From NCBI GenBank assembly GCA_963674755.2, contig CAXXVS010000001.1, positions 256,001 to 320,000 on the forward strand: a stretch of DNA of 64,000 nucleotides, given 5' to 3'. Below, piece after piece: positions 6,876 to 39,866 of the stretch (within the stretch, counting starts at the first letter, position 1; every line of letters begins with the position of its first letter). The position numbers and the translations under genes are program-made. The notes below the pieces were generated by a model. The model had not been told where the DNA came from, ran no database searches, and was given only the letters and a program-made list of their open reading frames with translations. The stretch is from Desulfobacterales bacterium (lineage in GTDB: Bacteria > Desulfobacterota > Desulfobacteria > Desulfobacterales > UBA5852).

Positions 6876-7880
6876 ATGCAATTGATCGACAACAGCGCCT
6901 GCAGCGATCCGGCCATCAACCTGGCCCTGGAAGAGTATCTGGTGCGGCATATGCGGAGCAGCGGGACCGTGCTTCTTTTCTACGTGAACGCCCCGGCGGT
7001 GGTTATCGGCCGCAACCAGGTGCCCCATACGGAAATCAGTTTGCAGACGGTGACGCGGCAGGCCATCAAGGTCGTGCGGCGCCTGTCGGGAGGGGGGGCC
7101 GTCTACCATGACCGGGGGAATTTGAATTTCAGCCTGATCCAGGCCCATGACCCCGATACCATCCTATCACCCGCCGAGGCCTTGCAGCCCGTGGTGCAGG
7201 GCCTCAAGGGAGCAGGACTGCCGGTCTATCTGAACGTCCGTAACGATATCATGGCGGATGGCCGGAAGGTGAGCGGGGCGGCCCAATACCGCACACGGAA
7301 CAGATGTCTCACCCACGGGACCCTGCTGGTGTCCGCCGATCTGGAGGCGCTCCGGCGTGCGCTGGAGGTGGACAGCACGGTGCCGTCATCCCGGGGCCGG
7401 GTGTCCGTTCGCAGCTCGGTGACCAATCTGAACCGCCACCAGCCGGCCCTGGATACGGCCGAGGTCCGTGAGATCCTGATCCCATCCTTTGCGAAGCAGC
7501 ACGGAGCGGCGCTTCCCCTGGTGCTCGACGCCGCTGCCTGGGGCATTATTCACCAAACAGCCCGGACCAAATACCGTTCCTGGGACTGGACCATGGGGCG
7601 TGCGCCTGCATTCCAGCTGCACCGCAAGGCGGTTTTCCCATGGGGGCCGTGTGAGGCCTTACTTGATATCCAGCGGGGTATCATGACCCGTATCGACCTG
7701 GGCCTGCCCGCGGGCGCGCCCGCCTTCCTGGATGCTCTGGCGGCCGCGCTGGAAGGCTGCCGTTATCATCCCGCAGATATCAGCGCGGTGTTGCAGGCGG
7801 GGGGGGTGTTGCCTGAAGGGCGGGCCATCTCGGACCAGGTGGCCGACTGGTTGGGGGCTTCACTGTGTCCCTGGTGCTGA
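6876..7880 (+). CDS. lplA: lipoate-protein ligase A
   Basis: NLALEEYL, VVIGRNQ, VRRLSGGGAVYHDRGNLNFS, RKVSGAAQ, HGTLL, KYRSWDW. Confidence 0.95.
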   Translation: MQLIDNSACSDPAINLALEEYLVRHMRSSGTVLLFYVNAPAVVIGRNQVPHTEISLQTVTRQAIKVVRRLSGGGAVYHDRGNLNFSLIQAHDPDTILSPAEALQPVVQGLKGAGLPVYLNVRNDIMADGRKVSGAAQYRTRNRCLTHGTLLVSADLEALRRALEVDSTVPSSRGRVSVRSSVTNLNRHQPALDTAEVREILIPSFAKQHGAALPLVLDAAAWGIIHQTARTKYRSWDWTMGRAPAFQLHRKAVFPWGPCEALLDIQRGIMTRIDLGLPAGAPAFLDALAAALEGCRYHPADISAVLQAGGVLPEGRAISDQVADWLGASLCPWC

Positions 7881-7946
7881 CGCGCACGCTGGGGGAGAAA
7901 AAGGTCGCGTGGTGTCGCGCTGGACGCGGCCTTCTATGGGAGGGCT

Positions 7947-9314
7947 TTAATGCAAGGCCTTGTCCAGGGTCTCCTCGTCCAGCAGCCCTTTCTCCCTGAC
8001 CACTTCCCGGATGGTGCGGCCGCTCCGGTAGGCTTCGTGGGCCATGGCGGCCGCCTGGTCATAGCCCAGGTGGGGCACGAGTCCGGTCACCAGGGCCAGG
8101 CTTTGCTCGATATTGGCGGCACAGCGCTCCTGGTTGGCCGTAACCCCTGCCAGGCATTTGCGATCCAGCACTTCCGCGCTGGCGGCCATCAAGTCGATGG
8201 ATTGCAGCAGGTTGTATGCGATCAGGGGCAGCATGGTATTGAGCTCGAAATAGCCGCCCTGGCCGCCCACCCCGATGGCGACGTCGTTGCCCATGACCTG
8301 GGCCGCGGCCTGGATGACGGCTTCCGGGATGACCGGATTGACCTTGCCGGGCATGATGGAGGAACCCGGCTGCAGGGACGGCAGATTGATCTCGCCCAGC
8401 CCGCAGCGCGGACCGGACGCCAGCCAGCGCAGGTCGTTGGCGATCTTGATCAGGGCCACGGCCATGGTTTTCAGTACGCCGCTCAGTTCCACCGCGGTAT
8501 CCTGGGAGGCCTGGGCCTGGAAATGATTGGCAGCCTCACAGAACGTTATCCCGGTCATGCGGTTCAGTTCGGCAATCACCCGGCCGGCAAATTCCGGGTG
8601 GGTGTTGAGGCCGCTGCCCACCGCGGTGCCGCCCAGGGCAAGTTCGGCGAGGCGCTTGGCCGTATCGCCCAGCCGTTCGCGTACCAGCGCGATCTGGCGG
8701 GCATAGCCGCTGAATTCATCCCCCAGCGTCATGGGCACGGCATCCTGGAGATGGGTCCGTCCGATTTTGCGCACCGCGTCGAAAGCCTGCGCTTTTTCCG
8801 CCAGCACCGCCTGAAGACTCTCCAGGGCCGGGGTGAGCCGGCCGTGAAGCTTTACCAGGGCGGTCAGATGGATGGTGGTGGGGATGACGTCGTTGCTGGA
8901 CTGCCCCCGGTTGACATGGTCATTGGGGTGGACGGGGTGTTTGCCCCCCTTGTGCCCGGTCAGGATTTCATTGGCCCGGGAGGAGAGGACCTCGTTCATG
9001 TTCATGTTGGTGGAGGTCCCGGAGCCGGTCTGAAAGACGTCCACCACGAATTGGTCGTTCAAGCGGCCCTCCAGGACGTCGTCGGCGGCCTGTACGATGG
9101 CCCCGGCCACGTCGTCCGGCAGCAAGCCCAGCCGGGCATTGGCCCTGGCGGCCGCCTGTTTGATCATGGCCAGCGCGTGGATGAATTCGTGGGGTAGCCG
9201 CAGGCCGCTGATGGGGAAATTTTCCGCGGCCCGCTGGGTCTGGGCGCCGTAATAGGCGGCTTCCGGAACCCGGACCGTGCCCATGGAGTCTTTTTCTTCA
9301 CGGTAGGATGCCAT
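7947..9314 (-). CDS. fumC: class II fumarate hydratase
   Basis: QTGSGTSTNMN, HPNDHVN, SSND, KIGRTHLQDA and the signature GSSIMPGKVNP. Confidence 0.92.
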   Translation of the reverse strand: MASYREEKDSMGTVRVPEAAYYGAQTQRAAENFPISGLRLPHEFIHALAMIKQAAARANARLGLLPDDVAGAIVQAADDVLEGRLNDQFVVDVFQTGSGTSTNMNMNEVLSSRANEILTGHKGGKHPVHPNDHVNRGQSSNDVIPTTIHLTALVKLHGRLTPALESLQAVLAEKAQAFDAVRKIGRTHLQDAVPMTLGDEFSGYARQIALVRERLGDTAKRLAELALGGTAVGSGLNTHPEFAGRVIAELNRMTGITFCEAANHFQAQASQDTAVELSGVLKTMAVALIKIANDLRWLASGPRCGLGEINLPSLQPGSSIMPGKVNPVIPEAVIQAAAQVMGNDVAIGVGGQGGYFELNTMLPLIAYNLLQSIDLMAASAEVLDRKCLAGVTANQERCAANIEQSLALVTGLVPHLGYDQAAAMAHEAYRSGRTIREVVREKGLLDEETLDKALH

Positions 9315-9397
9315 CCGGCCTCTCTTTCTATAGGGTTACGCCCTTTTCTCTTGCGGCTATCCGGGATGCTCAAGTTGGTCTTAAGGTAACGCCATCA

Positions 9398-9589: not shown

Positions 9590-9862
9590 TCAGACGCGTG
9601 CCAGCGTGTCTTCCTTGAGCCGTTCGATGTTGGCCCGCAACTGGGCGACCTCGATGCCGAGGCCGATACACTGCCGGCCGAGCATGCATTTTTCCGCGTC
9701 GCCATCATCGAGATGGGTCTTCAGTTCGAAGCGGCCTTTGCGCAGATCGACGATCCAGGCCTTTTTTATCTTGTCATAGGTGACATCGACATCGATGCCG
9801 CATTGCCCGATATCCGGGTAAAGCTCGATGATTTTGGCACATAGTTGCGCTTTATCGATCAT
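9590..9862 (-). CDS. small hypothetical protein (4 Cys)
   Basis: AGGAGG RBS before ATG 9862; 90 aa with protein-like composition. Confidence 0.75.
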   Translation of the reverse strand: MIDKAQLCAKIIELYPDIGQCGIDVDVTYDKIKKAWIVDLRKGRFELKTHLDDGDAEKCMLGRQCIGLGIEVAQLRANIERLKEDTLARV

Positions 9863-10013
9863 GGGTCCTCCTTGCTGCCGGGTGTCAAAGCGTTCAGGCC
9901 CGCCGCGGCGCCGCAAATACGGCAGCGGGCGTTTCCGGCAGTCTCAGAGGTTAAGGTAGGTTTCCCGCAGGTTTTTGCAAGTCGGCGATTACATGGCCAG
10001 GGGGCGTTGGGCA

Positions 10014-10790
10014 TCAGGAACGGTCATCGGCCGGCAGATAGCGGCTCACCCAGGCGGCGATCAGCCGGCCGGCATAACGGGCGTCGACCGGATCGGAGAG
10101 CAGATGGTCGGCGCTGTCCAGGGAGACGAAGCTCTTTGGATGCCGGGCGATGCGGTAGAGCCGGGCCGCATTTTCGATGTCCACCACGGTGTCGCGGGGG
10201 GAATGGAGGATCAGCAGGGCGCGGTCGAGTTCCTTCAGCGCCCGGTCGATATCCGTTCGGGTGATATCCTCCAGGAATTGCTTTTTAATCGTCAACCGGC
10301 GGCCGCCAATGGTGATATCCGCCGCCCCCTGGCGCTGCAAGGGCTCCCGGATATCCTCCAGATGGTGTTGCAGGTGGGCCGGTTCGGCGGGGGCTGCGAT
10401 GGCCACCACGGCGCGCACGGACGGCAGGGCCGCCGCTGCCTGGATCACGGCGGCGCCGCCCAGGGAATGCCCCACCAGCATCAGGGGCGGGGTGCCCTGG
10501 GTCTCCATATAGCGGGCGGCATCGATCAGATCGGTGACATTGGATGAGAAATTCGTGTCGGCAAAGACCCCCTGGCTGGCCCCCAGGCCTGTGAAGTCGA
10601 ATCGCAGGACCCCGATGCCCTCCCGGTTCAAGGCCCGGGCGATATGATAGGCGGCCTTGATATCCTTGCCGCAGGTGAAGCAATGGGCAAACAGGGCATG
10701 CGCGAGCGCCCGACCCTCGGCGGGGACATCCCAGCGGGCGGAAAGTTCCAAGTCGTGCCGATTGGTGATGCGAATACCGCGCTGCAGCAT
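10014..10790 (-). CDS. alpha/beta hydrolase of the type usually fused to OsmC (OsmC domain absent)
   Basis: ALFAHCFTCGKD, RFDFTGLG.S.G, GHSLGG nucleophile elbow, HPKSFVSLD.ADHLL. Confidence 0.9.
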   Translation of the reverse strand: MLQRGIRITNRHDLELSARWDVPAEGRALAHALFAHCFTCGKDIKAAYHIARALNREGIGVLRFDFTGLGASQGVFADTNFSSNVTDLIDAARYMETQGTPPLMLVGHSLGGAAVIQAAAALPSVRAVVAIAAPAEPAHLQHHLEDIREPLQRQGAADITIGGRRLTIKKQFLEDITRTDIDRALKELDRALLILHSPRDTVVDIENAARLYRIARHPKSFVSLDSADHLLSDPVDARYAGRLIAAWVSRYLPADDRS

Positions 10791-10916
10791 GTTATCTTCT
10801 CCTGGTCTCTCAGGTGCCGTGTTAGGTGATCCCGATGGGACGCCGGCATCACCCTGTCCGGGTTGTAGCCCGCCCTTTGGCCGCGGCCGTCTTCCACAGA
10901 CGTCGGCGGATGGCAT

Positions 10917-11900
10917 TTATGGCGCGCTTTCCCGGCGCTGCTGGATGCTGGCCAGGGCTTCCCGGGCGGCCTGGCATACATCCGGATTGGAGCTGTGGGC
11001 GGCAACATCCTCCAAAAAAGGCACCGTGCGGTGATCCCCTGTCTCCCCCATGATGTAGAGCACATCGCCCTTTACGGCATCCTCCTGCCGGTCATAGCGC
11101 TGTCGCAGCGCCGGCAGCACCTCGGCGGCCAAACGCGGGTTCACGGCCGCGATGGTTTCCATCACCACCATGGCCCCCAGCCGCACGGGCCACTCGGGGT
11201 GGGTCAGCAGATCGAAGAGGGGCGGGAACAAGTGGCCCTTGTCAAGCATGGCCTGGGCCACCTGGCTGGCCAGGCCCTCCTTGATCAACCCATTTAAGGC
11301 GGCGCTGTCCAGGCGGCTGGGATCGCGGGTGGCGAGCTGTTCCAGGACCGCATCCACCGGGATCCGACCGGACCAGCGCAGATGGCGGTCGAGCACGAGG
11401 GTCGGTACGGCCTGGATCTTGTCTTCCCGCGCCATTTCCGGGAACAGGGCGCCATCGATGACCGCCAGGCGCAATCGCGGGCCGGCCTTGGCCAACGCCA
11501 CCCATTGCTGCAAGGCCCCTGGGCAGAACGGGCAGGCCGGTGCGATGAAAAGCCGGATTTCAACCGGCAGAGCCATTTGCTCCAGCCATTTGCGCCGCAT
11601 TTCCGGGATCGGGGCTTCGTCCTGGCCGGGCGGGAACAGGGCCGCGATCAGGCTGTCGAGCTTGTCGCCCTCCGGCAGGGCCTGGAAGCGGATGCCCGCC
11701 GCGGTCTCCAGCCAGGGGGGCTCGGAAATGTCTTCCACGACGGTCACCAAATCGATTCCCGGCAGTGCTTCGTGCAGTTGGCGGCCATAGTCTTGAAACC
11801 GATCGCTGAGATCATGACGGGTCAATACCAGGCGCAGTCGAATGTTGGGCGGCAGGTCCGCGCCAAGCGCCTGCAATCGTTCGTGGTCCTCGGGTTTCAT
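10917..11900 (-). CDS. AhpF-N-like thioredoxin-fold protein with C-terminal HEAT repeats
   Basis: FIAPACPFCP, IDGALFPE, cis-Pro AVPT. C-terminal HEAT-like helices (HPEWPVRLGA, NPDVCQAAREAL). Confidence 0.75.
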   Translation of the reverse strand: MKPEDHERLQALGADLPPNIRLRLVLTRHDLSDRFQDYGRQLHEALPGIDLVTVVEDISEPPWLETAAGIRFQALPEGDKLDSLIAALFPPGQDEAPIPEMRRKWLEQMALPVEIRLFIAPACPFCPGALQQWVALAKAGPRLRLAVIDGALFPEMAREDKIQAVPTLVLDRHLRWSGRIPVDAVLEQLATRDPSRLDSAALNGLIKEGLASQVAQAMLDKGHLFPPLFDLLTHPEWPVRLGAMVVMETIAAVNPRLAAEVLPALRQRYDRQEDAVKGDVLYIMGETGDHRTVPFLEDVAAHSSNPDVCQAAREALASIQQRRESAP

Positions 11901-12219
11901 CACTGGTGCCAGGATATTCCTCCCATCGCTTATCGTCCGATTTTCTCTCACGGCTATAATCCAGTTGTGCGACCACCGCAACTCTATCCGCCGGGGAGGG
12001 TCGGTCAGGATCGGCTCCCGAATCAAGAGGATAATGTTTGACAACCCCCAAGGCGTTTTTTATGATTTCGCCATTCCGCCGCCGATCCGAACCATAACAC
12101 CCCGGCGACCAAGCGCCGCACGCTGACCGGTCGGCAGACGTTTTCCCATCCAGCCCGTCTGCCGGTGCCCGACGCCGCCTGTTTCAGCCGCCCTAGCCCC
12201 ATCAGGAGGAACACTGTCC

Positions 12220-14964
12220 ATGAAGGCCTTCGAAACCTATCAGGCCCCGTTCATCGAGGACCAGTACGAGCGCTGGCGACGGGATCCCCAATCCGTCAGC
12301 GCGGACTGGCAGCATTATTTTATCGGCTTCGACATGGGACGCGAGGCCCCCGCCGGAGAAGAAGGCATGTGGGACGAGGACCGCATGCTGCAGCAGGCCC
12401 GCGTGGAAGCCTTGAAGTACCGTTACCGCGACCTGGGCCATCTCCTGGCCTGCATGGATCCCCTGGAGGCCTGCCCGGTCGACCATCCCCTGCTGGCGCT
12501 GGGTGCCTTCGGGCTGAAACCCGACGATCTCGAGACCCGTTTTTTCACCCGCCGCTTCTCCAACGACCGCATGGCGCCCCTCAAGGAGATCGTCCAAGCC
12601 CTCAGGGAGACCTATTGCCGTTCCGTCGGCGCGGAGTACATGCACCTGCAGGATCCCGAGGAGCGCCGCTGGCTGCAGGAGCGGATGGAACCGGTCCGCA
12701 ACCAGCCCGCAATCGAACCGGAAGTGCGCCGCCGCGTCCTGGAGCGCCTCAGCCGGGCGGCCCTGTTCGAGCAGTTTCTCAACCGCAAGTATGTCGGGGT
12801 GACCCGTTTTTCACTGGAGGGAGGCGACGGCCTGATCCCCATGCTGGACGATCTGGTGAACCATGCGGCGGCCAGCGGGGGACGGGAAATTATCCTGGGC
12901 ATGGCCCACCGGGGGCGCCTGAACGTTCAGACCCACATCCTGGGCAAGTCCTACGAAGACATCTTCAGCGAGTTCGAACACTGTTACGATCCCGACGCCC
13001 TCGTGGGGGCCGGGGACGTCAAATACCACAACGGCTACCTGGCCGATCTGACCACCGCCAACGGCCACGCCCAGCGCATTTTTCTCGTGAACAACCCCAG
13101 CCATCTGGAGGCGGTCGATCCGGTGGCGGAAGGCATTGCCCGGGCCCGGCAGGATCTGGCCGCCGGGGAGCGGCATCGTATCCTGCCGGTGCTGATCCAC
13201 GGGGATGCGGCTTTCGCCGGACAGGGGGTGGTGGCCGAAACCCTCAACATGTCCCAGCTGGAGGGCTATACCACCGGCGGCACCCTGCACATCATCATCA
13301 ACAACCAGATCGGCTATACCACGCTGCCCAAGGACGCCCGTTCCACCCGCTATTCGACAGACGTGGCCAAGATGCTGATGGTGCCGGTGTTCCATGTGCA
13401 CGGGGAGAACCCGGAAGCGTTGCTGCATGTGGTCCGCACGGCCTATGACTATCGCAACACCTTCGGCAAGGACGTGGTCGTCGACCTGGTCTGCTACCGC
13501 CGCTATGGCCATAACGAAGGCGACGAACCCTATTTTACCCAGCCCACCATGTACGACCGGATCCGCCGGCGCGCTTCGCTTCACAAGCTCTACGCGGAAA
13601 CCCTCATCGCGGCTGGTCTGATCACCAAAGAGGCCGTGGACGCCATCGGCCAGGAGATTCGCGATGAACTCGAGCAGGCCTACGACGCCATCCATGGCAG
13701 TACCTGCCTCTTTCCCCAGGACCGTTTTTTCGACAACTGGGAGAACTACACCGACCGCTTCGATCATGACCCGGTGGAAACCGGGGTGGCCGCGGACACC
13801 CTGATCCAGCTGGCCCGCGCCCTGCGAGCCGAACCGCCGGGGTTCAACCTCAACAACAAACTCCAGCGGCAGATGGACAAGCGCCTGGCGGCAGTGGAAG
13901 AGGGGAACGACATCGACTGGGCCAATGCCGAAGCCCTGGCGTGGGCCTCCCTCCTGGCGGAAGGCACCCCCATCCGGCTCAGCGGTCAGGACTGCGCCCG
14001 GGGCACCTTCAGCCAGCGCCACAGCGTCTGGATCGACACGGCTTCCGGCGAATCTTACACGCCCTTGAACGCCCTGACGGACGACCAGGCGGTCTACGAC
14101 GTCCACAACAGCCTGCTGGCGGAGTACAGCGTCTTGGGCTTCGAATACGGCTATGCCATGATGCGGCCTGAAGCGCTGGTGATCTGGGAAGCCCAATTCG
14201 GGGACTTCGTCAACAACGCCCAGTCCGTGATCGATCTTTTCATCGCCAGCGGGGAATCCAAATGGCAGCGCCTGAACGGCCTGGTGATGCTCCTGCCCCA
14301 TGGGCTCGAGGGCCAGGGGCCCGAGCATTCCAGCGCGCGGCTGGAGCGCTTTCTGCAATTGTGCGCCGATGACAACATGCAGGTGTGCTACCCCACCACC
14401 CCGGCCCAGTATTTTCACCTTTTACGGCGCCAGGTGCACCAGACCTGCCGCAAACCCCTGGTGGTGATGACCCCCAAGAGCCTGCTGCGCAACCCGGCGG
14501 CAACCTCCAGCCGGAAAGACCTGGCGGCGGGCCATTTCCAACCCGTGCTGGACGACAGCGACGCACCCGCCTCGGCCGCCCGCCTGATTTTCTGCAGCGG
14601 GAAGATCTATTACGAGATGGCTGAACGCCTGCGCTCCCTGCGGCGGCGCCAGGCCGCCCTGGTGCGTCTGGAACAGTTTCATCCCTTTCCGGAAGCGGCC
14701 CTGCGCGCAGTTATCGGCCGCTATAAAAAAGCCCGGCAATTCCTGTGGGTGCAGGAAGAACCGGAGAACATGGGCGGCTGGCAGTTCGTGCGGCCCCGCC
14801 TGGAACCCCTGCTGACCAAACCGCTGCGCTATGTCGGGCGTCCCCCCTCGTCCAGCCCGGCCAGCGGATTTCCCAAAATCTACCGGCGCCAGCAGGATGC
14901 CATTCTCAATGAAGCCGTGGGGATCGAAGACGCGGATCGCGCCGCCAGCGCGGCGGCGAATTAA
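12220..14964 (+). CDS. sucA: 2-oxoglutarate dehydrogenase E1
   Basis: GMAHRGRLN, GDVKYH, NPSHLE, ThDP motif HGDAAF...INNQIG, WEAQFGDF, GQGPEHSS. Confidence 0.97.
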   Translation: MKAFETYQAPFIEDQYERWRRDPQSVSADWQHYFIGFDMGREAPAGEEGMWDEDRMLQQARVEALKYRYRDLGHLLACMDPLEACPVDHPLLALGAFGLKPDDLETRFFTRRFSNDRMAPLKEIVQALRETYCRSVGAEYMHLQDPEERRWLQERMEPVRNQPAIEPEVRRRVLERLSRAALFEQFLNRKYVGVTRFSLEGGDGLIPMLDDLVNHAAASGGREIILGMAHRGRLNVQTHILGKSYEDIFSEFEHCYDPDALVGAGDVKYHNGYLADLTTANGHAQRIFLVNNPSHLEAVDPVAEGIARARQDLAAGERHRILPVLIHGDAAFAGQGVVAETLNMSQLEGYTTGGTLHIIINNQIGYTTLPKDARSTRYSTDVAKMLMVPVFHVHGENPEALLHVVRTAYDYRNTFGKDVVVDLVCYRRYGHNEGDEPYFTQPTMYDRIRRRASLHKLYAETLIAAGLITKEAVDAIGQEIRDELEQAYDAIHGSTCLFPQDRFFDNWENYTDRFDHDPVETGVAADTLIQLARALRAEPPGFNLNNKLQRQMDKRLAAVEEGNDIDWANAEALAWASLLAEGTPIRLSGQDCARGTFSQRHSVWIDTASGESYTPLNALTDDQAVYDVHNSLLAEYSVLGFEYGYAMMRPEALVIWEAQFGDFVNNAQSVIDLFIASGESKWQRLNGLVMLLPHGLEGQGPEHSSARLERFLQLCADDNMQVCYPTTPAQYFHLLRRQVHQTCRKPLVVMTPKSLLRNPAATSSRKDLAAGHFQPVLDDSDAPASAARLIFCSGKIYYEMAERLRSLRRRQAALVRLEQFHPFPEAALRAVIGRYKKARQFLWVQEEPENMGGWQFVRPRLEPLLTKPLRYVGRPPSSSPASGFPKIYRRQQDAILNEAVGIEDADRAASAAAN

Positions 14965-14975
14965 AGGAGAACCCG

Positions 14976-16277: not shown

Positions 16278-16279
16278 CC

Positions 16280-20132: not shown

Positions 20133-20141
20133 GAGGCGTCC

Positions 20142-21458: not shown

Positions 21459-21582
21459 AGGGGAGCAGACCGTCCGACCGATGGTTGGTTTTCAGCGCGA
21501 CAGGTGACGTTTGGGGCTTAACGGCGCAGATGTTTTCTTATGACGACACCTTAGCAAGAAGCATGAAGGGGAGATCGCAACC

Positions 21583-26288: not shown

Positions 26289-26293
26289 CGTCC

Positions 26294-27589: not shown

Positions 27590-27598
27590 GGAGGGGTC

Positions 27599-28123
27599 AT
27601 GCCGGCCGAAAGACGTTTGATGGGGCTGTTCAAAGAACCGGATCAGGTGATCGAGACGTTGCGGGCCTTCAGCAGCTCGCCCTGGTCGGTGGTCCGGGTG
27701 CACGGCCCGATTCCCAATCATAAAATTAGCGATATCCTGAACCTGCCCAAAAGCAGGGTGGGGCTGTTCACCCTGACCGGCGGCATCATCGGGTTTTTTA
27801 CGGGCTTCCTGCTGGCGGCCTATACCTCGACCCAGTGGAATCTGATCGTCAGCGGCAAGCCCATTGTGGCCCTGGTACCGTTTTTTATCGTGGGTTTCGA
27901 GTTCACGATTCTGTTCTCGGTCTTCGGCAATGTGATCGGACTGATCAATGTCGGGGGATTGCCGGACTGGGCCGGGCTGGTGGAATACGACCCACGCTGC
28001 TCCGGCGCGTATTACGGGATTACGGCGGCCTGCGATCCGGCCCGGGAGGCCGAATTGCGACAGTTCTTCCAGGAGCGGGGGGCCCAGGTGGCCGATTTGG
28101 AGACATTGCCGCAACCCGCCTGA
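27599..28123 (+). CDS. actD: ACIII subunit D (DUF3341-like)
   Basis: H.PIP.H, two TM segments, VSGKP and FE.TILF. Lies directly after actC. Confidence 0.85.
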   Translation: MPAERRLMGLFKEPDQVIETLRAFSSSPWSVVRVHGPIPNHKISDILNLPKSRVGLFTLTGGIIGFFTGFLLAAYTSTQWNLIVSGKPIVALVPFFIVGFEFTILFSVFGNVIGLINVGGLPDWAGLVEYDPRCSGAYYGITAACDPAREAELRQFFQERGAQVADLETLPQPA

Positions 28124-28160
28124 AGGCGGGCGGCCGCACGACGCACGTCAACGGAAAGGC

Positions 28161-29363: not shown

Positions 29364-29914
29364 TGGACCCTCTCGCCGCCCTGCAAAACACGCTGCAGCG
29401 CCTGCGCGCCAACCGGGTGCCGATCCTTTGCACCCTGATCGCCGCCGTACTGGTGGCGGGGTTCCTCGTGTTGTTTTACATACCGCCCCAGAGCATGATC
29501 GGTCCGGCCCAGCCGATTCCCTTCAGCCATCGGCTGCACGCCGGCCACAAGGCGATTCAATGCCAGTTTTGCCATCCCTATGTAGGCCGCTCCCTCAACC
29601 CCGGGCTGCCGCCGGTGGAAAAATGCCTTTACTGCCACAACTACATCATCACCAACCACTGGTGGATTCAAAAAGAGCACCACTATTTCAACACCGGAAC
29701 CCCCACCCCCTGGGTCAAGGCCAATTTTTTGCCCGAGCACGTGCTGTTCAATCATCAGCGGCACATCCGGTTCGGGATCGAATGCCAATCCTGCCACGAT
29801 CAGGTGCAAACCCAGGATCGCATCAAGGGCAAGCAATTCAAGATGGGCTTCTGCATCAATTGTCACCGGCAGAAAAAGGTCAACCTGGGCTGCTGGCTGG
29901 CCTGCCACAGCTGA
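29363..29914 (+). CDS. actA: membrane-anchored pentaheme cytochrome c, ACIII subunit A
   Basis: N-terminal TM, QPIPFSH..H, CQFCH, CLYCH, FNH..H, CQSCH, MGFCINCH and terminal CWLACH. Confidence 0.88.
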   Translation: MDPLAALQNTLQRLRANRVPILCTLIAAVLVAGFLVLFYIPPQSMIGPAQPIPFSHRLHAGHKAIQCQFCHPYVGRSLNPGLPPVEKCLYCHNYIITNHWWIQKEHHYFNTGTPTPWVKANFLPEHVLFNHQRHIRFGIECQSCHDQVQTQDRIKGKQFKMGFCINCHRQKKVNLGCWLACHS

Positions 29915-29947: not shown

Positions 29948-31339
29948 ATGACAAGGAGATCCGCTTTGGCAACCAATACAACAAGCGCGGCGCCTAACTA
30001 TCTCACAGCCAAGGGGTTCTGCCTGACATCGGCCCTATGGATGACGGTGGCCACCTTTGCCGGCCTGCTGGGCGCCACCGAACTGATCGCGCCGGATTTG
30101 ACCCAGAACATCGGTTGGCTCGTCTTCGGGCGCGTACGCCCGATCCACGTCAACCTGGTGTTGTTCGGCTTTGTCACCCCAGGGCTGCTGGCGGCGGCGT
30201 TCTACTATCTGCCGCGCATCCTGCGCACCGAATTGTTCAGCGAAATGCTGGGCGTGGTCACGGTGGTGCTCTGGAATCTGACCTTGGTCGCCGCGGTGGC
30301 CACCCTGGCCAGCGGATACTCCCAGGGCCGGGAATACGCTGAAATGGTCTGGCCGGTGGACATGGGGGTGGTGCTGGTGTTCAGTCTGGTGCTGGTCAAT
30401 TTCGTCATGACGGTGGTCCGCCGCAAGGAGCCCGTTCTCTATGTGTCGGTGTGGTATGCCTGTGCCGCCGTGATTTTGACGGCGACCACCTTCAGCCTGG
30501 GCAACGTCATCTGGCACCCCGATACCGGGGCGCTGGTGGGGATCCCGGACGCCATTCTGCTGTGGTTTTACGGCCACAATGTCTTCGGATTGCTGCTGAC
30601 GCCCCTGGCCGCCGGGGTGGCTTACTATGTCATTCCCCGGGCCTGCAAGACGCCCCTTTACAGCCATACCCTTTCCCTGCTGGGATTCTGGTCGCTGATC
30701 GTGGTCTACACCCATATCGGCACCCACCACCTGCTACAGGTACCGGTCCCCACCTGGCTCAAGGTCATTTCCATCGTGGACAGCATCGCCATGGTCATCC
30801 CCGTGATGGCCTTCCTGATCAACATCTGGTACACGGCCAAGGGGAAATTGGGCGAAATCCACAACGACGTGGGGGCCAAGTTCGTTTTTACCGGCACGAT
30901 CATGTATTTCTTCGTGAGCATGCAGGGCTCGATCATGGCCCTGCCCCAGGTGCAGCGCATCACCCATTTCAACAACTGGGTGGTGGCCCATGCCCACGTG
31001 GGCGTGCTGGGGTTTGCCGGCATGATCGCCCTGGGGGGCCTCTACTACATTCTGCCCCGCATCACCAACAAGCCGCTCTTCAGCCGTTTTTTGGCGGACT
31101 TTCAGTATTGGATGGTGCTGATCGGCGTGGTGGGATTTACCATCGTGCTGACCATCGCGGGGCTGATCCAGGGCAACGCCTGGTATAACGGCGAAACCGT
31201 CTACCGGGTCCTGGCCGAAATCCATATGTACTATATCGTCCGGGCCTCGCTGGGCCTCATGATTTTTAGTTCGGCCATTCTGGGCCTCTACAACATCGTC
31301 CGAACCCTGTATTTCAATCCGGGAGAGAAGTTGTCATGA
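29948..31339 (+). CDS. ccoN: C-family (cbb3-type) heme-copper oxidase subunit I
   Basis: FGRVRPIHVN, REYAE, WFYGHN, helix VII YTHIGTHH, W..AHAH. An alternative TTG start at 29966 follows AAGGAG. Confidence 0.9.
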   Translation: MTRRSALATNTTSAAPNYLTAKGFCLTSALWMTVATFAGLLGATELIAPDLTQNIGWLVFGRVRPIHVNLVLFGFVTPGLLAAAFYYLPRILRTELFSEMLGVVTVVLWNLTLVAAVATLASGYSQGREYAEMVWPVDMGVVLVFSLVLVNFVMTVVRRKEPVLYVSVWYACAAVILTATTFSLGNVIWHPDTGALVGIPDAILLWFYGHNVFGLLLTPLAAGVAYYVIPRACKTPLYSHTLSLLGFWSLIVVYTHIGTHHLLQVPVPTWLKVISIVDSIAMVIPVMAFLINIWYTAKGKLGEIHNDVGAKFVFTGTIMYFFVSMQGSIMALPQVQRITHFNNWVVAHAHVGVLGFAGMIALGGLYYILPRITNKPLFSRFLADFQYWMVLIGVVGFTIVLTIAGLIQGNAWYNGETVYRVLAEIHMYYIVRASLGLMIFSSAILGLYNIVRTLYFNPGEKLS

Positions 31340-32271
31340 AGATGACGCCCGCCGCGATTCTGATCGGCAGCCTGCTCATATTGGGGACCATCGTGTTCAT
31401 GGTCGTTTATATGCCCTATGCGACTTACGATGACACCCCTTCGGATATTTTCCGTGCACGCACGGCCCAGGAAGCCGCCGGACGCAAGCTTTACATCGCC
31501 AACGGCTGCGTCTACTGCCACAGCCAATCCATCCGGAGCATCGACTGGGGGTTGGGGGCGGAACGGATCGCCCAGGCCGGCGACTATGTCCAGGACCAGC
31601 CCATCCTCCTGGGCTCCCAGCGCACCGGGGTCGATCTGTCCCAGGAAGGCGGCGAGCACCCCGATGACTGGCATGCGGCCCATTTCATGAATCCGCGCTA
31701 TACCCGGCCTTTGTCCATCATGCCGGCCTTTGGGTTCCTGGCCGCGGCCGACATGCTGATCCTGACCAACTATGTCCAAAGCCTGGGACTCAAAGAGGCT
31801 GACCGGCGCGTCGCGCGGCAGAATTTCTGGAAGAAAAAGGCCATCGCCGCCTATGAAAAGGGGGTGCTGGCCAACGCCCGTTGGCTCAACGTGGAGATTG
31901 TCCCGGAAGGCTGGCAAAAGGTCGTCAATCCCTATCCCACGACGCCGGCCGGATTGGCGCGGGGGCGCAAGATCTACCAGGATTTCTGCATCGGCTGCCA
32001 TGGTCCGGTGGGGGACGGCATGGGGCCGGCCCAGCCCTGGATCTACCCGCCGCCCCTAAATTTCACGGTCGTTCGACAGCGCGGCATCTCCGGCGGGATT
32101 CTCTACTATCACATCATGAACGGCATCACCGGTACGGCCATGCCCTATTTCAAACGCGATCTGGAATCTCAGAAGATCTGGGAGGTGGGCAATTTCGTGG
32201 CGGTCAACTTCATCAACCAGAGCGATGCCAACACGGCGCCGCGCGGCATCGATTCCGCCTGGGAGCCCTGA
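31336..32271 (+). CDS. ccoO: cbb3-type oxidase subunit II with an extra C-terminal cytochrome c domain (diheme)
   Basis: GRKLY..NGCVYCHSQ.IR, GSQRTG.DL, SIMP. Second domain GRKIY...CIGCHG...G.G with AMP Met ligand. Confidence 0.88.
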   Translation: MKMTPAAILIGSLLILGTIVFMVVYMPYATYDDTPSDIFRARTAQEAAGRKLYIANGCVYCHSQSIRSIDWGLGAERIAQAGDYVQDQPILLGSQRTGVDLSQEGGEHPDDWHAAHFMNPRYTRPLSIMPAFGFLAAADMLILTNYVQSLGLKEADRRVARQNFWKKKAIAAYEKGVLANARWLNVEIVPEGWQKVVNPYPTTPAGLARGRKIYQDFCIGCHGPVGDGMGPAQPWIYPPPLNFTVVRQRGISGGILYYHIMNGITGTAMPYFKRDLESQKIWEVGNFVAVNFINQSDANTAPRGIDSAWEP

Positions 32272-32273
32272 CG

Positions 32274-32534
32274 ATGTATTACCCTTATTTTTTAACCTAT
32301 ATGGCCGTGGGCTTCGGGATCACGCTGATCGTCTTCATCTGGGCGCTGAACAACGGCCAGTTCAAGGAGCAGCAGCGGGCCCGCTATCTTCCCCTGCATG
32401 ACGCGCCCGATCCGCCGCCGGTCAAGCCGTCGCGGTTTATCCGCCTGGAGATGCTCGTCCTTTTCACCATGGCGGCTTTGGGGTTGGCCGCCAGTGGGGC
32501 CGTTATTATCTTCGCTCTTATCCATGGCAGCTGA
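32274..32534 (+). CDS. ccoS: cbb3 oxidase maturation protein CcoS-like
   Basis: FIWALNNGQFKE matches the FxWxxxxGQFxD pattern. Extra C-terminal TM. Confidence 0.8.
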   Translation: MYYPYFLTYMAVGFGITLIVFIWALNNGQFKEQQRARYLPLHDAPDPPPVKPSRFIRLEMLVLFTMAALGLAASGAVIIFALIHGS

Positions 32535-32542
32535 GGTGATCC

Positions 32543-32818
32543 ATGCGATTATTCGCCTTATCCAATTTTCAGGACATCATCCTCTATCTTTTCCCGACGC
32601 TGATCTTCATGATCCTGTTCGGCGCGGGGCTGGCCTATACCCGTTTCCAGCGGAAAGACGACCGGCAGCGCGAGGAGACCGTCATCTATCGTTTCCCGAG
32701 CGGCATTGAAGATCGGGATGCGCCCTTCCCCCTGATGATGATCCTGATCATCGTGGGGACGGTATTGTGGGCCTTTTTCTACATTCTGATGCACGGCTTG
32801 CTGGGAGTGAAAATCTGA
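32543..32818 (+). CDS. small 2-TM protein resembling the CcoP N-terminal membrane region
   Basis: GAGGTG RBS. GIEDRDAPFP...T..W..FY resembles the CcoP-N pattern GIxExDNPxP...TI.F...Y. Confidence 0.7.
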   Translation: MRLFALSNFQDIILYLFPTLIFMILFGAGLAYTRFQRKDDRQREETVIYRFPSGIEDRDAPFPLMMILIIVGTVLWAFFYILMHGLLGVKI

Positions 32819-32819
32819 T

Positions 32820-33047
32820 ATGGACCGTCACCTGCACAAAGAATCGATCCTCAAGACTTGGCTGGTGGTATTCGGCCTGATGGCTCTCATCCTGGGCAAA
32901 GGCTTTTTTTCATTCTTTGTCGTTTCCGATTTGGGGCCGCCCGACTGGGACTACCGGCCGGTGATGGATGTGCCCGCGGAATCGCCCTACGCCATCTACC
33001 AGAAACTGCTCTACCCGCAGCACGTCCGGGGCGCCAAGGGGGAGTGA
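32820..33047 (+). CDS. small 1-TM hypothetical protein
   Basis: Abuts both neighbours (1-nt and 0-nt gaps); one hydrophobic helix. Confidence 0.7.
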   Translation: MDRHLHKESILKTWLVVFGLMALILGKGFFSFFVVSDLGPPDWDYRPVMDVPAESPYAIYQKLLYPQHVRGAKGE

Positions 33048-33569
33048 ATGAAGAAGAACCTGATTATTATCTTCGGGGCCCTGGCCGTTTTTTTCGGTGT
33101 CTACTCCAGCCTGACGATCCAGGACACCTATTTCAAATGGGGCCGTATGTGGCAGACACCGGCCGTGCGGCCCTATGAGGAGCCTTTGTTGGTGATGAAG
33201 GCGGACGTGGTGCCGGTCAGCGGTGGAGAGGCCCTTTACCGCACGGCGGATCCCGCCACCCTTTTGTCACCCTTTGACGGGCGCTCGCCCGAGATCATTG
33301 CCGAGGGCCAGAAAGCGTACTTCACCTATTGCCAGCAATGCCACGGCGTCCACCAGGACGGTCAGGGGACGGTGGGCCAGAGCTTCGTCCCCCTGCCCAC
33401 GGACCTGCGCATTCCCCGCGTTCAGCAGATGGAGGACGGTCTGATGTTCAAGGAGATCAGCTACGGCGTCGATCGGCCCGGTGCCCGCCAGCCCGCCCTG
33501 GCCACGACCATTTTCCCAGATGACCGCTGGAAGATCGTCCACTATGTCAAGTCGCTGGGGGTGCGTTGA
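33048..33569 (+). CDS. monoheme cytochrome c, ActE-like
   Basis: N-terminal TM, GRM..TP.VRPYE, G..AY..YCQQCHG, DRWKIVHYV. Confidence 0.8.
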   Translation: MKKNLIIIFGALAVFFGVYSSLTIQDTYFKWGRMWQTPAVRPYEEPLLVMKADVVPVSGGEALYRTADPATLLSPFDGRSPEIIAEGQKAYFTYCQQCHGVHQDGQGTVGQSFVPLPTDLRIPRVQQMEDGLMFKEISYGVDRPGARQPALATTIFPDDRWKIVHYVKSLGVR

Positions 33570-33722: not shown

Positions 33723-36242
33723 ATGAGCAGTACCCCCGAGGTCTGCGCGCTTTGCGGCCTGCCGTTGCGCTACGGACGGTGTGTCGGGCAGCACGGCGAT
33801 CGTGAGCTGCATTTCTGCTGCCAGGGCTGTCGCCAGGTCTACAGCGTGCTGGCCGAAGCTGCCGATGCCGGCGATCCGGCCGATTTCCGCCATACGACAT
33901 TGTTTCAGCGTTGTGTGGCCATGGGCATCATCCCCAGCTCGGAAGAAGCGCTGGCCGCGGCCCACGCCGCCGTGCGGGACGATGCGCGCCAAGGGGCGCC
34001 ACCCTCCACGGTCGAACGGGAAGATTTTCTGACCCTGCATCTGGCGGTCAGCGGGATGTGGTGCCCGGCCTGCGCCTGGGTCATCGAAGAGGCCTTGCGC
34101 AAGCAGTCCGGTATCGACCAGGCCCACTGCAATTTTTCCACCGACCGCCTGCGCTGCACCTACGACCCCACGCGCACCGCCCCCGACCGGATCCAGACGA
34201 TTGTCCGGAAACTGGGCTATCATGCGGATCTCCCGGACACCATGCGGACGGATCGCGAACGTCGCCGGGCGTTCGTGCGGTTCGCGGTTTCGACCTTCCT
34301 GACCATGAATGTGATGATGCTGGCCTTGGCCCTGTACACCGGTTTTTTCACCGCCTTGGAGAAGGAGGCCGTGTGGAAGATTTCCTGGCCCATGTTTATG
34401 ATGGCCACGGTGGTCATGGGCTATGGGGGGTTGCCGCTGTTTCACAAGGGACTCTCCGGGATTCTGGCCGGCCAGGCGGGTATGGAAGCGCTGGTCGGCA
34501 TCGGTGCCCTCAGCGCCTATGGGTATAGTGTGGTCAACCTGCTCCAAGGGAGCCTCCATCTTTATTTCGATACGGCCTGCATGCTGATCGTCTTGGTGCA
34601 GCTGGGCAAACTCCTGGAGGGGTGGGCCAAGAACCGGATTCAGGAAGACCTGGGCCATTACTACGCCCTGATGCCGGCCAAAGTCCGGTTTTGCCGTGAC
34701 ATCGACGACCAGGGCCGCTATGTGGCTGCGGAGATGCTGCAAAGCGGGGATCTGTTTCGGGTGACGGAAGGGGAGACATTGCCGGCCGACGGTCTGATCG
34801 CGCGGGGGCGGGGCCTGGTGGATGCCTCGTCCCTGACCGGGGAGGCCCGGCCGCTGCCCAAAGCCGCGGGCGATCGGCTGGTGAGCGGCACACGGGTGGT
34901 GGCGGGACGGTTTGTCGTGCGGGCCGAGGAAGTGGGCCGGGAGGCCATGCTGGGCCAGATGCTGCGCATCATGGATGGTGCGCTGGGCCGCAAGATTGCC
35001 GTGGAGGGACGCACGGACCGTATTCTGCGGATTTTCGTACCTGTCATGGTAGGGCTCGCCGCAGGGACCGCCCTGGTGCTTTTGATGCGTGGCGCGGCCT
35101 TCGAAACGGCTTTTGTGCGTGGTCTGACGGTGCTGGTCATTTCCTGCCCCTGCGCCCTGGGGGTGGCCGTGCCCCTGGCCCGGGTAGCGGGGGTGACCCT
35201 GGCCGCCCGCAAGGGCATTCTGGTCCAGGAATTCGCCGCCTTCGATCTGGCCCAGCGAATCGATACGGTGGTCTTCGATAAGACCGGCACCCTGACCCGC
35301 GGCAATTGGCAATTGCAGACGATTGTCAGCTTGTCTGCCCTGGATGAGAAGACCGTTTTAGGGGTAACGGCCGGGCTGGAGCAGCAGGTGGACCACGTGA
35401 TTGCAGTGGAGATTCGGCGGGCGGCCAAAGCCAGACAAATCGCGCCCCTCGTGGTCTCCACCGTAACCGCCCACGAACAGGGCCTGAGCGGCCGCTGGGA
35501 TGGGCGGGCGGTGCGATTGGGCAGCGCAAATTTCGTGGGGGCTGGTCCGGAGGAATCAAAGAACAGGGCAACGCCGGCGGGCGATGACCGCGCCGTGACC
35601 TCCTGGATTTTCCTGTCGGTGGACGACCGGATCGTGGCCCGTCTGGGCTTCGGGGATCGGTTGAAGCCCAGTGCCGCAGCGGCGGTACGCCGGATGCGGT
35701 CCCGGGGGCTGGCGCTCAGGCTGGTTTCGGGCGACAGCCAGAACGCGGTCCAACAGGTGGGGGGCCGCTTGGCCTTCCCCGATGCGCGCGGGGATCAACG
35801 CCCGCTCCCAAAAGCCCATTTTATCGAAGCTCTGCGCCGGGAAGGCGCTATCGTGGCCATGGTGGGCGACGGCATCAACGATGCCCCGGCCCTGGCCGCG
35901 GCGGATTTGAGTGTGGCGATCTTTGCCGGACGCCAACTGGGCAGGGAGGCCCAGGCCGTAACCCTCATGCAGGGCGATCCGCTCCAACTGGAGACGTTTC
36001 TGGCTTTCGCCGAGCGCGTCAACCGGAAAATCCAGCAAAATCTATGGGGTTCCTTGATCTACAATGTGATCAGCATTCCCATCGCCATGACCGGCTGGCT
36101 TTCACCCCTGGTGGCGGTGGGGGCCATGTTGCTGAGCAGTCTCAGTGTCACCGGCAATACCTTGCTGCTGGTTCACAGCGAAAGGCGTACGATTCCCTCG
36201 GCGAGCGACGACCCCGGAACCCTGCGCGAGGCTCAAGACTAA
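33723..36242 (+). CDS. ccoI: P1B-type Cu-ATPase, CcoI/FixI type
   Basis: CALC...FCCQGC, MWCPAC metal-binding domain, TGE, TM CPC, DKTGT, GDGINDAP, YN and MLLSS. Confidence 0.9.
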   Translation: MSSTPEVCALCGLPLRYGRCVGQHGDRELHFCCQGCRQVYSVLAEAADAGDPADFRHTTLFQRCVAMGIIPSSEEALAAAHAAVRDDARQGAPPSTVEREDFLTLHLAVSGMWCPACAWVIEEALRKQSGIDQAHCNFSTDRLRCTYDPTRTAPDRIQTIVRKLGYHADLPDTMRTDRERRRAFVRFAVSTFLTMNVMMLALALYTGFFTALEKEAVWKISWPMFMMATVVMGYGGLPLFHKGLSGILAGQAGMEALVGIGALSAYGYSVVNLLQGSLHLYFDTACMLIVLVQLGKLLEGWAKNRIQEDLGHYYALMPAKVRFCRDIDDQGRYVAAEMLQSGDLFRVTEGETLPADGLIARGRGLVDASSLTGEARPLPKAAGDRLVSGTRVVAGRFVVRAEEVGREAMLGQMLRIMDGALGRKIAVEGRTDRILRIFVPVMVGLAAGTALVLLMRGAAFETAFVRGLTVLVISCPCALGVAVPLARVAGVTLAARKGILVQEFAAFDLAQRIDTVVFDKTGTLTRGNWQLQTIVSLSALDEKTVLGVTAGLEQQVDHVIAVEIRRAAKARQIAPLVVSTVTAHEQGLSGRWDGRAVRLGSANFVGAGPEESKNRATPAGDDRAVTSWIFLSVDDRIVARLGFGDRLKPSAAAAVRRMRSRGLALRLVSGDSQNAVQQVGGRLAFPDARGDQRPLPKAHFIEALRREGAIVAMVGDGINDAPALAAADLSVAIFAGRQLGREAQAVTLMQGDPLQLETFLAFAERVNRKIQQNLWGSLIYNVISIPIAMTGWLSPLVAVGAMLLSSLSVTGNTLLLVHSERRTIPSASDDPGTLREAQD

Positions 36243-36320
36243 AAAGACGATGCCGCACGGGGACGGGATATGGGGTTTTCCCGCAGCGGCGGCTCAATAT
36301 AGCGGAAAGGAAAAGAGGGG

Positions 36321-37091
36321 ATGCCGGAAAATGTAACCATCAATGCGGACCGTGATGAACTGGCCCGGTTCGAGGCGGCCGCCTCAGGGTGGTGGTCCGG
36401 TGGCAAAGCGTTCCAGGCCCTGCACGATATCAACCCCCTGCGCCTGAAGTTTATCCGGCAGCGGGTCGACCTGGCCGGATGCGCCGTGGTGGACGTGGGG
36501 TGCGGCGGCGGTATTTTGAGCGAGGCCCTGGCGGCGGCGGGTGGTCGGGTTACCGGCATCGATCTCGGCCGGGCCGCCCTGGCGGCCGCCCAAGACCACC
36601 GCAAGGTGTCCGGCCTGCCCATCACCTACCGGCTGATCGATGCCGAGACGCTGGCCGGCCAACATCCGGGAGTTTTCGACGTGGTGGTCTGCATGGAGCT
36701 TCTGGAACATGTTCCCGACCCGTCTTCCGTCGTGCGGGCCTGTGCACGCCTGGCCAAACCCGGAGGGCATCTTTTTTTTGCCACCCTCAACCGCACCCCC
36801 CTCTCTTTTCTCCTGGCGATTCTCATGGCCGAACGGATTTTGCGCATCGTCCCCAACGGCACCCACCACTATGCACGCTTCGTCTCCCCCAGGGAACTGG
36901 CGGACTGGGCCGGCCGCAACGGGCTGTGCGCGCCCGAATTCAGGGGCATGCTGTATCTCCCGTTTTTGCGCCGGACGACCCTCATCAAGAGCACGGCCGT
37001 CAATTACCTGGCCCATTTCCGCCGTCGGCATTTTTCTCCTGACCCTCCGTTGACCGGATCTTCCGAATCCTCTATAGTAATCGACTTTTGA
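36321..37091 (+). CDS. ubiG: UbiG-family O-methyltransferase
   Basis: WW....F.ALH.INPLRL.FI, VDVGCGGGILSE, CMELLEHVPDP, TLNRT, P.GTH.Y. Confidence 0.88.
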   Translation: MPENVTINADRDELARFEAAASGWWSGGKAFQALHDINPLRLKFIRQRVDLAGCAVVDVGCGGGILSEALAAAGGRVTGIDLGRAALAAAQDHRKVSGLPITYRLIDAETLAGQHPGVFDVVVCMELLEHVPDPSSVVRACARLAKPGGHLFFATLNRTPLSFLLAILMAERILRIVPNGTHHYARFVSPRELADWAGRNGLCAPEFRGMLYLPFLRRTTLIKSTAVNYLAHFRRRHFSPDPPLTGSSESSIVIDF

Positions 37092-39864: not shown

Positions 39865-39866
39865 AG

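Follow-up and report, generated by a model that had tools for sequence, protein, structure and literature searches.

Desulfobacterales are the dominant sulfate reducers of marine sediments and are regarded as strict anaerobes. Facultative oxygen respiration by sulfate reducers is described as having precedent (PMC10591310), and the known cases, namely the Acidobacteriota of Dyksma and Pester, Ca. Thermonerobacter with an alternative complex III (ACIII) and an aa3 oxidase, and an evolved Desulfovibrio vulgaris, combine reductive Dsr with a full aerobic chain. Here we analyse a stretch of 64,000 nucleotides (the window, C1:256001-320000 of the host genome G000), in which genes for an ACIII (act) and a cbb3-type oxygen reductase (cco) lie beside genes for lipoyl-dependent dehydrogenases. 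Its genes predict a variant ACIII-cbb3 chain that a sulfate reducer would combine with O2-tolerant dehydrogenases, and the module is widespread in the order. It shares the pairing of reductive Dsr with a full aerobic chain with the cases above, but differs from them in belonging to Desulfobacterales-type genomes, in being present in about half of those sampled, and in forming one conserved act-cco operon of predicted function. We found no description in the literature of this operon, or of the quinone gene set that travels with it, in Desulfobacterales (older surveys of ACIII and cbb3 oxidases in subscription journals may list the operon), and the main text of PMC11887813 does not contain the terms "oxidase", "alternative complex" or "oxoglutarate".

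A variant alternative complex III linked to a reduced cbb3 oxidase

Like the ACIII of Rhodothermus marinus and Flavobacterium johnsoniae, the complex encoded here comprises homologues of all six subunits ActA to ActF, with a pentaheme ActA, a fused ActB, a Pro-x-x-His quinol site in ActC and linkage to a heme-copper oxidase. The actB gene (23361-26288, + strand) encodes a B1-B2 fusion with a Tat/lipobox-like N-terminus, whose best matches in the Protein Data Bank (PDB) are subunit B chains of ACIII. It is followed by actC-actD-actF-actA (26285-29914, +), recognised by NrfD and ActD Pfam domains and by heme motifs; actF is a paralogue of actC and stands where canonical act operons have ActF, and ActA carries four CxxCH motifs and, as the last one, a CxxxCH. 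The quinol-site His121 of ActC is kept in 36 of 37 loci, and its spacing agrees with the Pro136/His139 given in PMC5928083. Unlike in the characterised complexes, the gene order is B-C-D-F-A, the actE homologue being displaced to a position after the oxidase genes (33048-33569, +; best PDB match R. marinus ActE, 6f0k_E, E 3e-12), and the partner oxidase is of the cbb3 and not the (c)aa3 type.

Two further differences concern cofactor ligands. ActB carries an N-terminal four-Cys Fe-S motif (C53, C56, C60 and C88, numbered from 23355), which recurs in all 42 Desulfobacterota-type loci that have the ActB N-terminus (45 loci, 3 of them truncated) and is absent from the solved ActB structures; the B1 domain of R. 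marinus is described as having no prosthetic group (PMC5928083). The motif is also seen in several loci from Gemmatimonadota, and is thus not unique to Desulfobacterales. Of 29 named loci, 27 have Gln at the axial Met position of ActE, one has Met and one His, so that the His/Met ligation was not recovered. Because ActE is described as dispensable in F. johnsoniae (PMC8552683), we take this replacement as the mark of a variant. The act-encoded complex is not the menaquinone reductase Qrc, since a true qrcABCD is encoded separately on C3; the window proteins score below the Qrc cut-offs.

The oxidase resembles the CcoNOP of Pseudomonas stutzeri in its catalytic core and its accessory genes. CcoN (29948 or 29966-31339, +), a C-family heme-copper oxygen reductase subunit for which all PDB matches are cbb3 CcoN, retains the six His ligands, the active-site Tyr of helix VII and four proton-channel positions. 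It is followed by CcoO, fused here to an extra cytochrome c domain (31336-32271, +; FixO and cytochrome c Pfam domains, two CxxCH), by a CcoS-like maturation protein (32274-32534, +; Pfam FixS 22.7 against a cut-off of 23.1, E 8e-5) and, beyond actE, by a CcoI-like P1B copper ATPase (33723-36242, +; HMA, E1-E2 ATPase and ATPase-cat_bd domains). In contrast to P. stutzeri, there is no diheme CcoP of the proteobacterial type in the block. In its place, a profile search revealed a heme-less CcoP N-terminal stub of 91 amino acids with two predicted membrane helices (32543-32818, +): the top six of the seven PDB matches of the profile, built on 33 homologues, are CcoP N-termini (best E 6e-4), and 28 of these homologues match FixP_N. 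We infer that the two roles of CcoP are divided between this stub and the second heme-c domain of CcoO. The enzyme also departs from P. stutzeri CcoNOP in scores that lie far under the family cut-offs, and in the residue at Glu323 (P. stutzeri numbering), which is Gln in all 32 scorable named loci (2 truncated). This conserved Glu sits near the heme b3 ligand.

Between the stub and actE lies a gene for a conserved membrane protein of 75 amino acids (32820-33047, +), which has no Pfam match and occupies the same place in six other genomes (G001, G014, G026, G041, G046 and G053). A DsbD_2 membrane protein is encoded at the far end of the window (63582-64000, -, running beyond it), and is followed by a NosL-like/FtsX/ABC cassette that sits immediately upstream of actB in Desulfosarcina.

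Oxygen-tolerant dehydrogenases in the same block

Gene calls were judged against curated NCBIfam cut-offs and by Pfam and PDB matches. LplA, SucA, SucB, both Lpd, E1-alpha, E1-beta and UbiG score above their NCBIfam cut-offs; FumC, the second E2 (pdhC), CcoN and CcoO fall below theirs. The block opens with the lipoate-protein ligase gene lplA (6876-7880, +; TIGR00545 292 against 280 bits, scored on the open reading frame from 6792) and fumC (7947-9314, -). The product of the latter misses the TIGR00979 cut-off (596 against 665) and passes that of the aspartase subfamily, yet its identity to E. coli FumC (51%) exceeds that to AspA (43%), and it keeps the motifs SSND, GRTHLQDA and GSSIMPGKVNP, as in class II fumarases. 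Three linked genes on the minus strand (9590-12044) encode a protein of 90 amino acids of no assigned family, whose gene adjoins fumC in many relatives, an alpha/beta hydrolase and a thioredoxin+HEAT protein. Then come sucA-sucB-lpd for 2-oxoglutarate dehydrogenase (OGDH; 12220-17719, +) and the E1alpha-E1beta-E2-lpd genes of a Bacillus-type 2-oxoacid dehydrogenase (18050-23004, +; TIGR03181 437 against 411 for E1-alpha). This second complex is likely a pyruvate dehydrogenase (PDH), the best PDB match of its E1-alpha being PDH 1w85 (E 4e-73, versus 1e-62 for the human branched-chain enzyme, BCKDH); a branched-chain role is also possible, since an aceE-type PDH is encoded on C3. Past the oxidase and quinone genes, a third lpd (-) and gcvT-H-PA-PB for lipoyl-dependent glycine cleavage (+) occupy 40478-46959.

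A preliminary description of this DNA had named lplA, fumC, sucAB-lpd, pdhABC-lpd, actBCDFA, ccoN/O/S/I and ubiG as near-contiguous, with a shared + orientation from 12220 to 39268. All of these genes are intact open reading frames. That orientation is confirmed for the 22 genes called in this interval, whose intergenic distances run from -8 to 356 bp, with the wider spacings before pdhA, actB and ccoI; fumC and the three genes before sucA are on the minus strand. As an inventory of the respiratory genes the list was right in what it named, but it passed over actE, the CcoP stub and the second heme-c domain of CcoO, and it overlooked the set of quinone genes that travels with the act-cco module.

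Distribution and descent of the module

We surveyed 61 genomes: the host, 16 members of its family and 44 genomes from other families of the order. A ccoN match was obtained in 30 of them, strongly in 29 (the weak match of G055 was dropped), and ActC at at least 72% identity in 30 (G025, at 54%, was treated as negative). The two go together: ActC is present in all 29 genomes with a strong ccoN, and ccoN in 29 of the 30 with ActC, the single discrepancy being G044, whose act contig stops within the operon. An identical act-cco order is found in Desulfosarcina alkanivorans, D. widdelii, the Olavius Delta 4 symbiont and a metagenome-assembled genome (MAG) of Syntrophobacter, and since it recurs across the order the block is not a chance arrangement. 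Among 45 Desulfobacterota-type named loci, actC lies within 10 kb of actB in 37 and ccoN in 34. In six loci (L041, L045, L046, L050, L053 and L065) actB stands without the subsequent act genes, and in two of the four inspected (L041 and L065) it is itself split, which suggests loss. One locus (L057:16035-19716) lacks ccoNO: there the act operon leads into a CcoP stub, actE, a remnant of ccoI, and then ubiG and ubiE.

The linkage to the dehydrogenases is narrower in scope. The order from lplA to the gcv genes, including ino1, the TIM-barrel gene, the third lpd and gcvTHP, is conserved in G001 and G014. In G026, G041 and G046, suc sits tens of kb from act-cco on the same contig. The fusion of the suc/pdh dehydrogenases with act-cco is mainly a family-level trait. 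Distances of SucA follow those of DsrAB (rho 0.53, p 0.001, 18 genomes), and strictly vertical descent is unsupported for ccoN (CcoN versus DsrAB, rho 0.11, p 0.11, 21 genomes). For ActF+A the correlation is 0.42, falling to 0.08 with one genome per family. Two genomes of the same genus, G002 and G009, share 90-91% identity in ActC but 73% in CcoN, which suggests that ccoNO may have been exchanged within the order. A recent transfer of the whole block is ruled out by its family-wide synteny and by codon scores, which for genes between 6876 and 39268 (0.15-0.31) scatter about the genome median (0.216).

The preliminary description had proposed comparing synteny in relatives and looking for horizontal transfer: the linkage it expected is borne out for act-cco across the order and for the longer block only close to the host, and the signal of exchange concerns the oxidase and not the block. 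It had also seen an O2-respiration toolkit in a nominally anaerobic lineage. The gene content of a full chain is there, but the toolkit is not exceptional, as ccoN is strong in 29 of the 61 genomes; the module is no one-off, being common in the order and present in Desulfosarcina type strains. Its placement of the host near Desulfobacterales is upheld: the nearest named homologues of ActB, CcoN and UbiA* (see below) are mostly from Desulfobacterales or delta-proteobacterial MAGs, and we therefore assign the host to a Desulfobacterales-type lineage.

A quinone-tailoring gene set that accompanies ACIII

Ubiquinone outside Pseudomonadota is reported in PMC13386864 only from the Desulfobacterota class GWC2-55-46, with some genomes carrying neither menaquinone pathway. 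Like the canonical ubiquinone pathway, the gene set found here includes a prenyltransferase of the UbiA family together with proteins resembling UbiG, UbiE and UbiB. Directly downstream of ccoI lies ubiG, for a ubiquinone-type O-methyltransferase (36321-37091, +; TIGR01983 243 against 103, PDB UbiG 4kdc at E 7e-66); in a set of 14 control genomes, UbiG was picked up in E. coli and Caulobacter and in no other. It is followed by ino1, a homologue of myo-inositol-1-phosphate synthase genes (37172-38338, +; Pfam, PDB inositol-3-phosphate synthase at E 3e-46), and by iolE*, a xylose-isomerase-like TIM barrel with no close solved relative and a candidate inosose isomerase/dehydratase (38423-39268, +; PF01261). 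A C-methyltransferase gene, ubiE*, lies at 62714-63529 (-), its product being 42% identical to E. coli UbiE versus 35% for the menA-linked MenG of the host.

Together with a divergent UbiA (UbiA*), these genes follow ACIII across the order. In a near-complete subset of 36 genomes from other families (at least 90% complete, one per family; 14 with ACIII and 22 without), UbiA* was found in 14/14 of the former versus 0/22 of the latter, UbiE* in 14/14 versus 1/22, UbiG in 12/14 versus 0/22, iolE* in 10/14 versus 0/22 and ino1* in 7/14 versus 0/22; the corresponding figures are 12/14 versus 5/22 for sucA and 14/14 versus 17/22 for dsrA. Over all 44 genomes from other families (16 with ACIII, 28 without), the counts are 16 versus 1 for UbiA*, 16 versus 4 for UbiE*, 13 versus 0 for UbiG, 10 versus 0 for iolE*, 7 versus 1 for ino1*, 13 versus 8 for sucA and 14 versus 23 for dsrA. 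Weak rows were dropped (UbiA of G022, 62 amino acids; iolE of G054, 29%; partial C-terminal Ino1 paralogues), and three partial ones retained (UbiG of G024, the broken ino1 of G017, ino1 of G054). The only genome with UbiA* and without ACIII is G054 (79% complete), where ubiA*, fumC and sucA lie together. Physical clusters of quinone genes with act-cco or fumC-sucA occur in G018, G019, G032, G045 and G053, and around ubiA* in 80 metagenome loci we found fumC in 38 (within 6 kb), ubiE* in 31, a cytochrome b5-DUF2231 gene in 39 and iolE* in one. Replacement of the futalosine route by this set is unsupported: MqnA/D is present in 5/14 genomes with ACIII versus 13/22 without (p 0.31).

Unlike the canonical pathway, the one predicted here has no detectable UbiC, D, X, H, I, J, T, V or Coq7. 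At E 1e-3, the host genome gave no match to E. coli UbiA, C, D, H, I, J, T, V or to UbiX, PF01977 (UbiD/MqnL) was not found in it, and its matches to UbiU, to its two U32 genes, reach just ~30%; Coq7 was found in none of five genomes. Canonical UbiB reaches its cut-off in none of the 61 genomes, and the host has a UbiB paralogue. The absence of UbiD alone is weak as evidence, since UbiB is described as able to decarboxylate (bioRxiv 10.64898/2026.03.05.709815). UbiA* itself keeps both Asp motifs. At the position of Arg43 of ApUbiA, a residue described as adjoining the substrate carboxyl (PMC11047366), UbiA* has Tyr, found in 116 of 120 close homologues (4 unmatched), and no Arg occurs among the six commonest residues there (31/33 aligned rows). 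We therefore infer that the substrate of UbiA* is a polyhydroxybenzene free of a carboxylate.

Whether the linked genes make a dedicated benzoquinone is, in our assessment, evenly balanced. UbiG is full-length and far over its cut-off, UbiE* is distinct from the menA-linked MenG, and the host has a bo3 oxidase of the ubiquinol type and no detectable MenC/D/H, MqnA/D or UbiD/MqnL for making menaquinone de novo. It does have menA and menG despite this, and salvage of 1,4-dihydroxy-2-naphthoate (DHNA) is possible. There is a substantial possibility, somewhat short of an even chance, that the product of ubiA*, ubiE*, ubiG and ino1 is no respiratory benzoquinone but a menaquinone derivative, an antioxidant or some membrane lipid that the cell needs under O2, with ACIII using salvaged menaquinol; the characterised ACIII are described as oxidising menaquinol (PMC8552683). 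UbiA* is nearer to an archaeal ether-lipid synthase, its best solved relative (E 2e-15), than to the 4-hydroxybenzoate (4-HB) prenyltransferase that follows (4e-8), and the product of the related ebo system is given as a signal molecule and not a quinone (bioRxiv 10.64898/2026.05.21.724671).

That same preprint, on thallusin, describes cyclitols from EboD or Ino1 leading, with isomerase-like proteins, to polyhydroxy-aromatics prenylated by a UbiA-like enzyme. The swap between EboD and Ino1 is also seen here, since an EboD-like cyclase stands beside iolE* in place of ino1 in G018 and G053. The partner genes differ, being quinone methyltransferases and respiratory genes, and UbiA* has no match to EboC-named models at E 1e-12; the counterparts of ebo proteins seen here are the EboD-like cyclase and TIM-barrel analogues. 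A cyclitol route to a benzoquinone ring is put forward tentatively, and we hold it to be rather doubtful. The cytochrome b5-DUF2231 gene lies beside ubiA* in all 6 genomes with ACIII that lack iolE* versus 1 of the 10 that have it (only the ubiA* loci were read), and was not found anywhere in the host genome.

The host genome and a predicted role in oxygen respiration

The host genome (6.71 Mb in three contigs, 97% complete) encodes DsrA, DsrB, DsrD and AprA besides the separate QrcABCD, markers of a reductive sulfate reducer. The O2-sensitive counterparts of the block, sought elsewhere in the genome as the preliminary description had advised, are present: a pyruvate:ferredoxin oxidoreductase (PFOR), eight POR_N matches, two class I fumarases and acsB. 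Two citrate synthases, sdhAB, sucCD, two nuo (complex I) clusters and a glyoxylate shunt complete the picture; the aceB-aceA genes of the latter (C2:1502049-1505070) occur alongside the Wood-Ljungdahl acsB in a sulfate reducer. The host also has a complete cyoABCDE (bo3 oxidase) above the family cut-offs (C3:2730-2736 kb; the only other A-family match in the 61 genomes is a broken one in G004), and three cydA (bd oxidases). One cydDC-cydAB operon lies at C1:231-237 kb, ~20 kb upstream of the window, and cydAB adjoins quinone genes in G017 and G053 as well.

We propose that the block probably serves energy-conserving respiration of low O2 when O2 blocks sulfate respiration, which is its likeliest role. 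What can be read off the sequence is which genes are present, that the catalytic residues are intact, and that a parallel set of O2-sensitive enzymes is encoded elsewhere. The block would provide for carbon oxidation by O2-tolerant enzymes and, with ACIII and a reduced cbb3 oxidase, for electron transfer from quinol to oxygen. LplA would lipoylate the PDH-type, OGDH and glycine-cleavage complexes, which together with FumC, citrate synthase, SucCD and SdhAB would give a predicted oxidative tricarboxylic acid (TCA) cycle independent of ferredoxin enzymes. Electrons would enter the quinone pool through complex I and Sdh; ActC would oxidise the quinol and pass them along the heme wire of ActA. The extra heme-c domain of CcoO may substitute for the missing CcoP hemes, with the stub giving the CcoP membrane helices, and CcoN would reduce O2 to water. 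CcoI, CcoS, DsbD_2 and the NosL/ABC cassette likely act in assembly. In the least certain step, UbiA*, UbiE*, UbiG and the UbiB paralogue may make a predicted methoxylated benzoquinone for the chain, whose ring Ino1 and the TIM barrel of the host would supply by way of a cyclitol.

Extended to the order, the joint reading, which we regard as a speculative and on balance unlikely conjunction, would make a large share of Desulfobacterales facultative microaerobes that pair ACIII-cbb3 with a cyclitol-derived, ubiquinone-like carrier. The ring would derive from glucose-6-phosphate via a cyclitol (Ino1 or EboD and a TIM-barrel dehydratase), be prenylated by a carboxylate-blind UbiA*, and then be methylated by UbiE* and UbiG, a route needing no chorismate, decarboxylase or hydroxylase, though it would also call for a dephosphorylation and an oxidation of inositol. 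Inosose minus two waters would be C6H6O4, the tetrahydroxybenzene ring of ubiquinol, and the EboD variant would lead to a demethoxy ring; the cytochrome b5-DUF2231 protein may be used instead in genomes without cyclitol genes.

A different role for the chain would be respiratory protection only, with reductant burnt to remove O2, the O2-stable dehydrogenases as fuel supply and no net growth on O2. Membrane oxidases of sulfate reducers are mostly interpreted as defence in PMC10591310 and PMC11451228, and by inspection rubrerythrin/rubredoxin-type genes adjoin one cydA of the host. But the host already has three bd oxidases and a glyoxylate shunt, and OGDH and a dedicated set of quinone genes occur together with the module. 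On the side of an energetic role, all classes of O2 defence are recorded as detected in anoxic D. multivorans proteomes but cytochrome oxidase, listed there as detoxifying with its type not stated (PMC5109826). We favour an energetic role and consider protection alone unlikely, because a detoxifying oxidase would need no OGDH, FumC or quinone kit. It is very improbable that the block serves another redox task (re-oxidation of sulfide or sulfur by reversed Dsr/Qrc, or handling of NO in nitrate respiration, with the TCA genes as neighbours by history). In its favour are narG, narI and a heme-copper protein the size of qNOR in the host, and L057, which retains act, ubiG and ubiE after losing ccoNO. 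Against it, both the CuB His triad and the O2-reductase Tyr are intact in CcoN, codon scores of the nar/nor genes are below those of the island, and qNOR-sized matches are patchy across genomes whereas ccoN tracks actC. The qNOR-sized protein lies with narGHJI and a transporter at C3:1824-1835 kb, where low codon scores suggest a recent gain.

Several points weigh against energy-conserving O2 respiration or its quinone step. Desulfosarcina species are described as strict anaerobes. CcoN and CcoO score 292 against a cut-off of 583 and 95 against 201 (NCBIfam), and neither the Glu-to-Gln change in CcoN nor the Met-to-Gln change in ActE has an assigned effect. The window contains no exact FNR-like site. 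Some genomes have sucA without ACIII, 6 of the 16 genomes with ACIII (one of them 100% complete) have no orthologue of iolE* or ino1, and the co-occurrence counts treat related genomes as independent, so that the Fisher p-values overstate the significance. Transcripts of caa3/bo3 oxidases are reported as low relative to bd in O2-stressed Desulfobacterota MAGs (PMC11451228), and the three Desulfobacterales rows seen in Table S2 of PMC13386864 (Desulfoluna, Desulfofrigus), taken regardless of carriage of the module, give menaquinone. Short contigs of a rhizosphere metatranscriptome (X1, share 0.20) are 99-100% alike on actB, actF/A and ccoN; they were set aside as expression evidence because the gene-free stretch 39627-39800 is also covered, pointing to possible DNA carry-over.

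If about half of the Desulfobacterales respire O2 for energy, this would give a genetic explanation for their persistence in oxic-anoxic zones, and the reading is testable now, as the named type strains Desulfosarcina alkanivorans and D. widdelii carry the operon. If the linked genes make a benzoquinone, it would be a second case of a ubiquinone-like carrier in Desulfobacterota beyond GWC2-55-46, reached by an unrelated route that gene-based quinone surveys would overlook, because it lacks UbiC/D/X and the hydroxylases.

Other features of the window and genome

The window has no Rfam match and no tRNA, and between iolE* and the third lpd a low-GC gap of ~1 kb (39270-40230) contains no confident gene. 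Elsewhere in the genome, ARAGORN predicts two tRNA-Sec genes (C1:791274 and C2:1226048). Upstream of lplA, a protein of 766 amino acids without Pfam or NCBIfam match is encoded at 4394-6694 (-), in a position that is fixed across the family.

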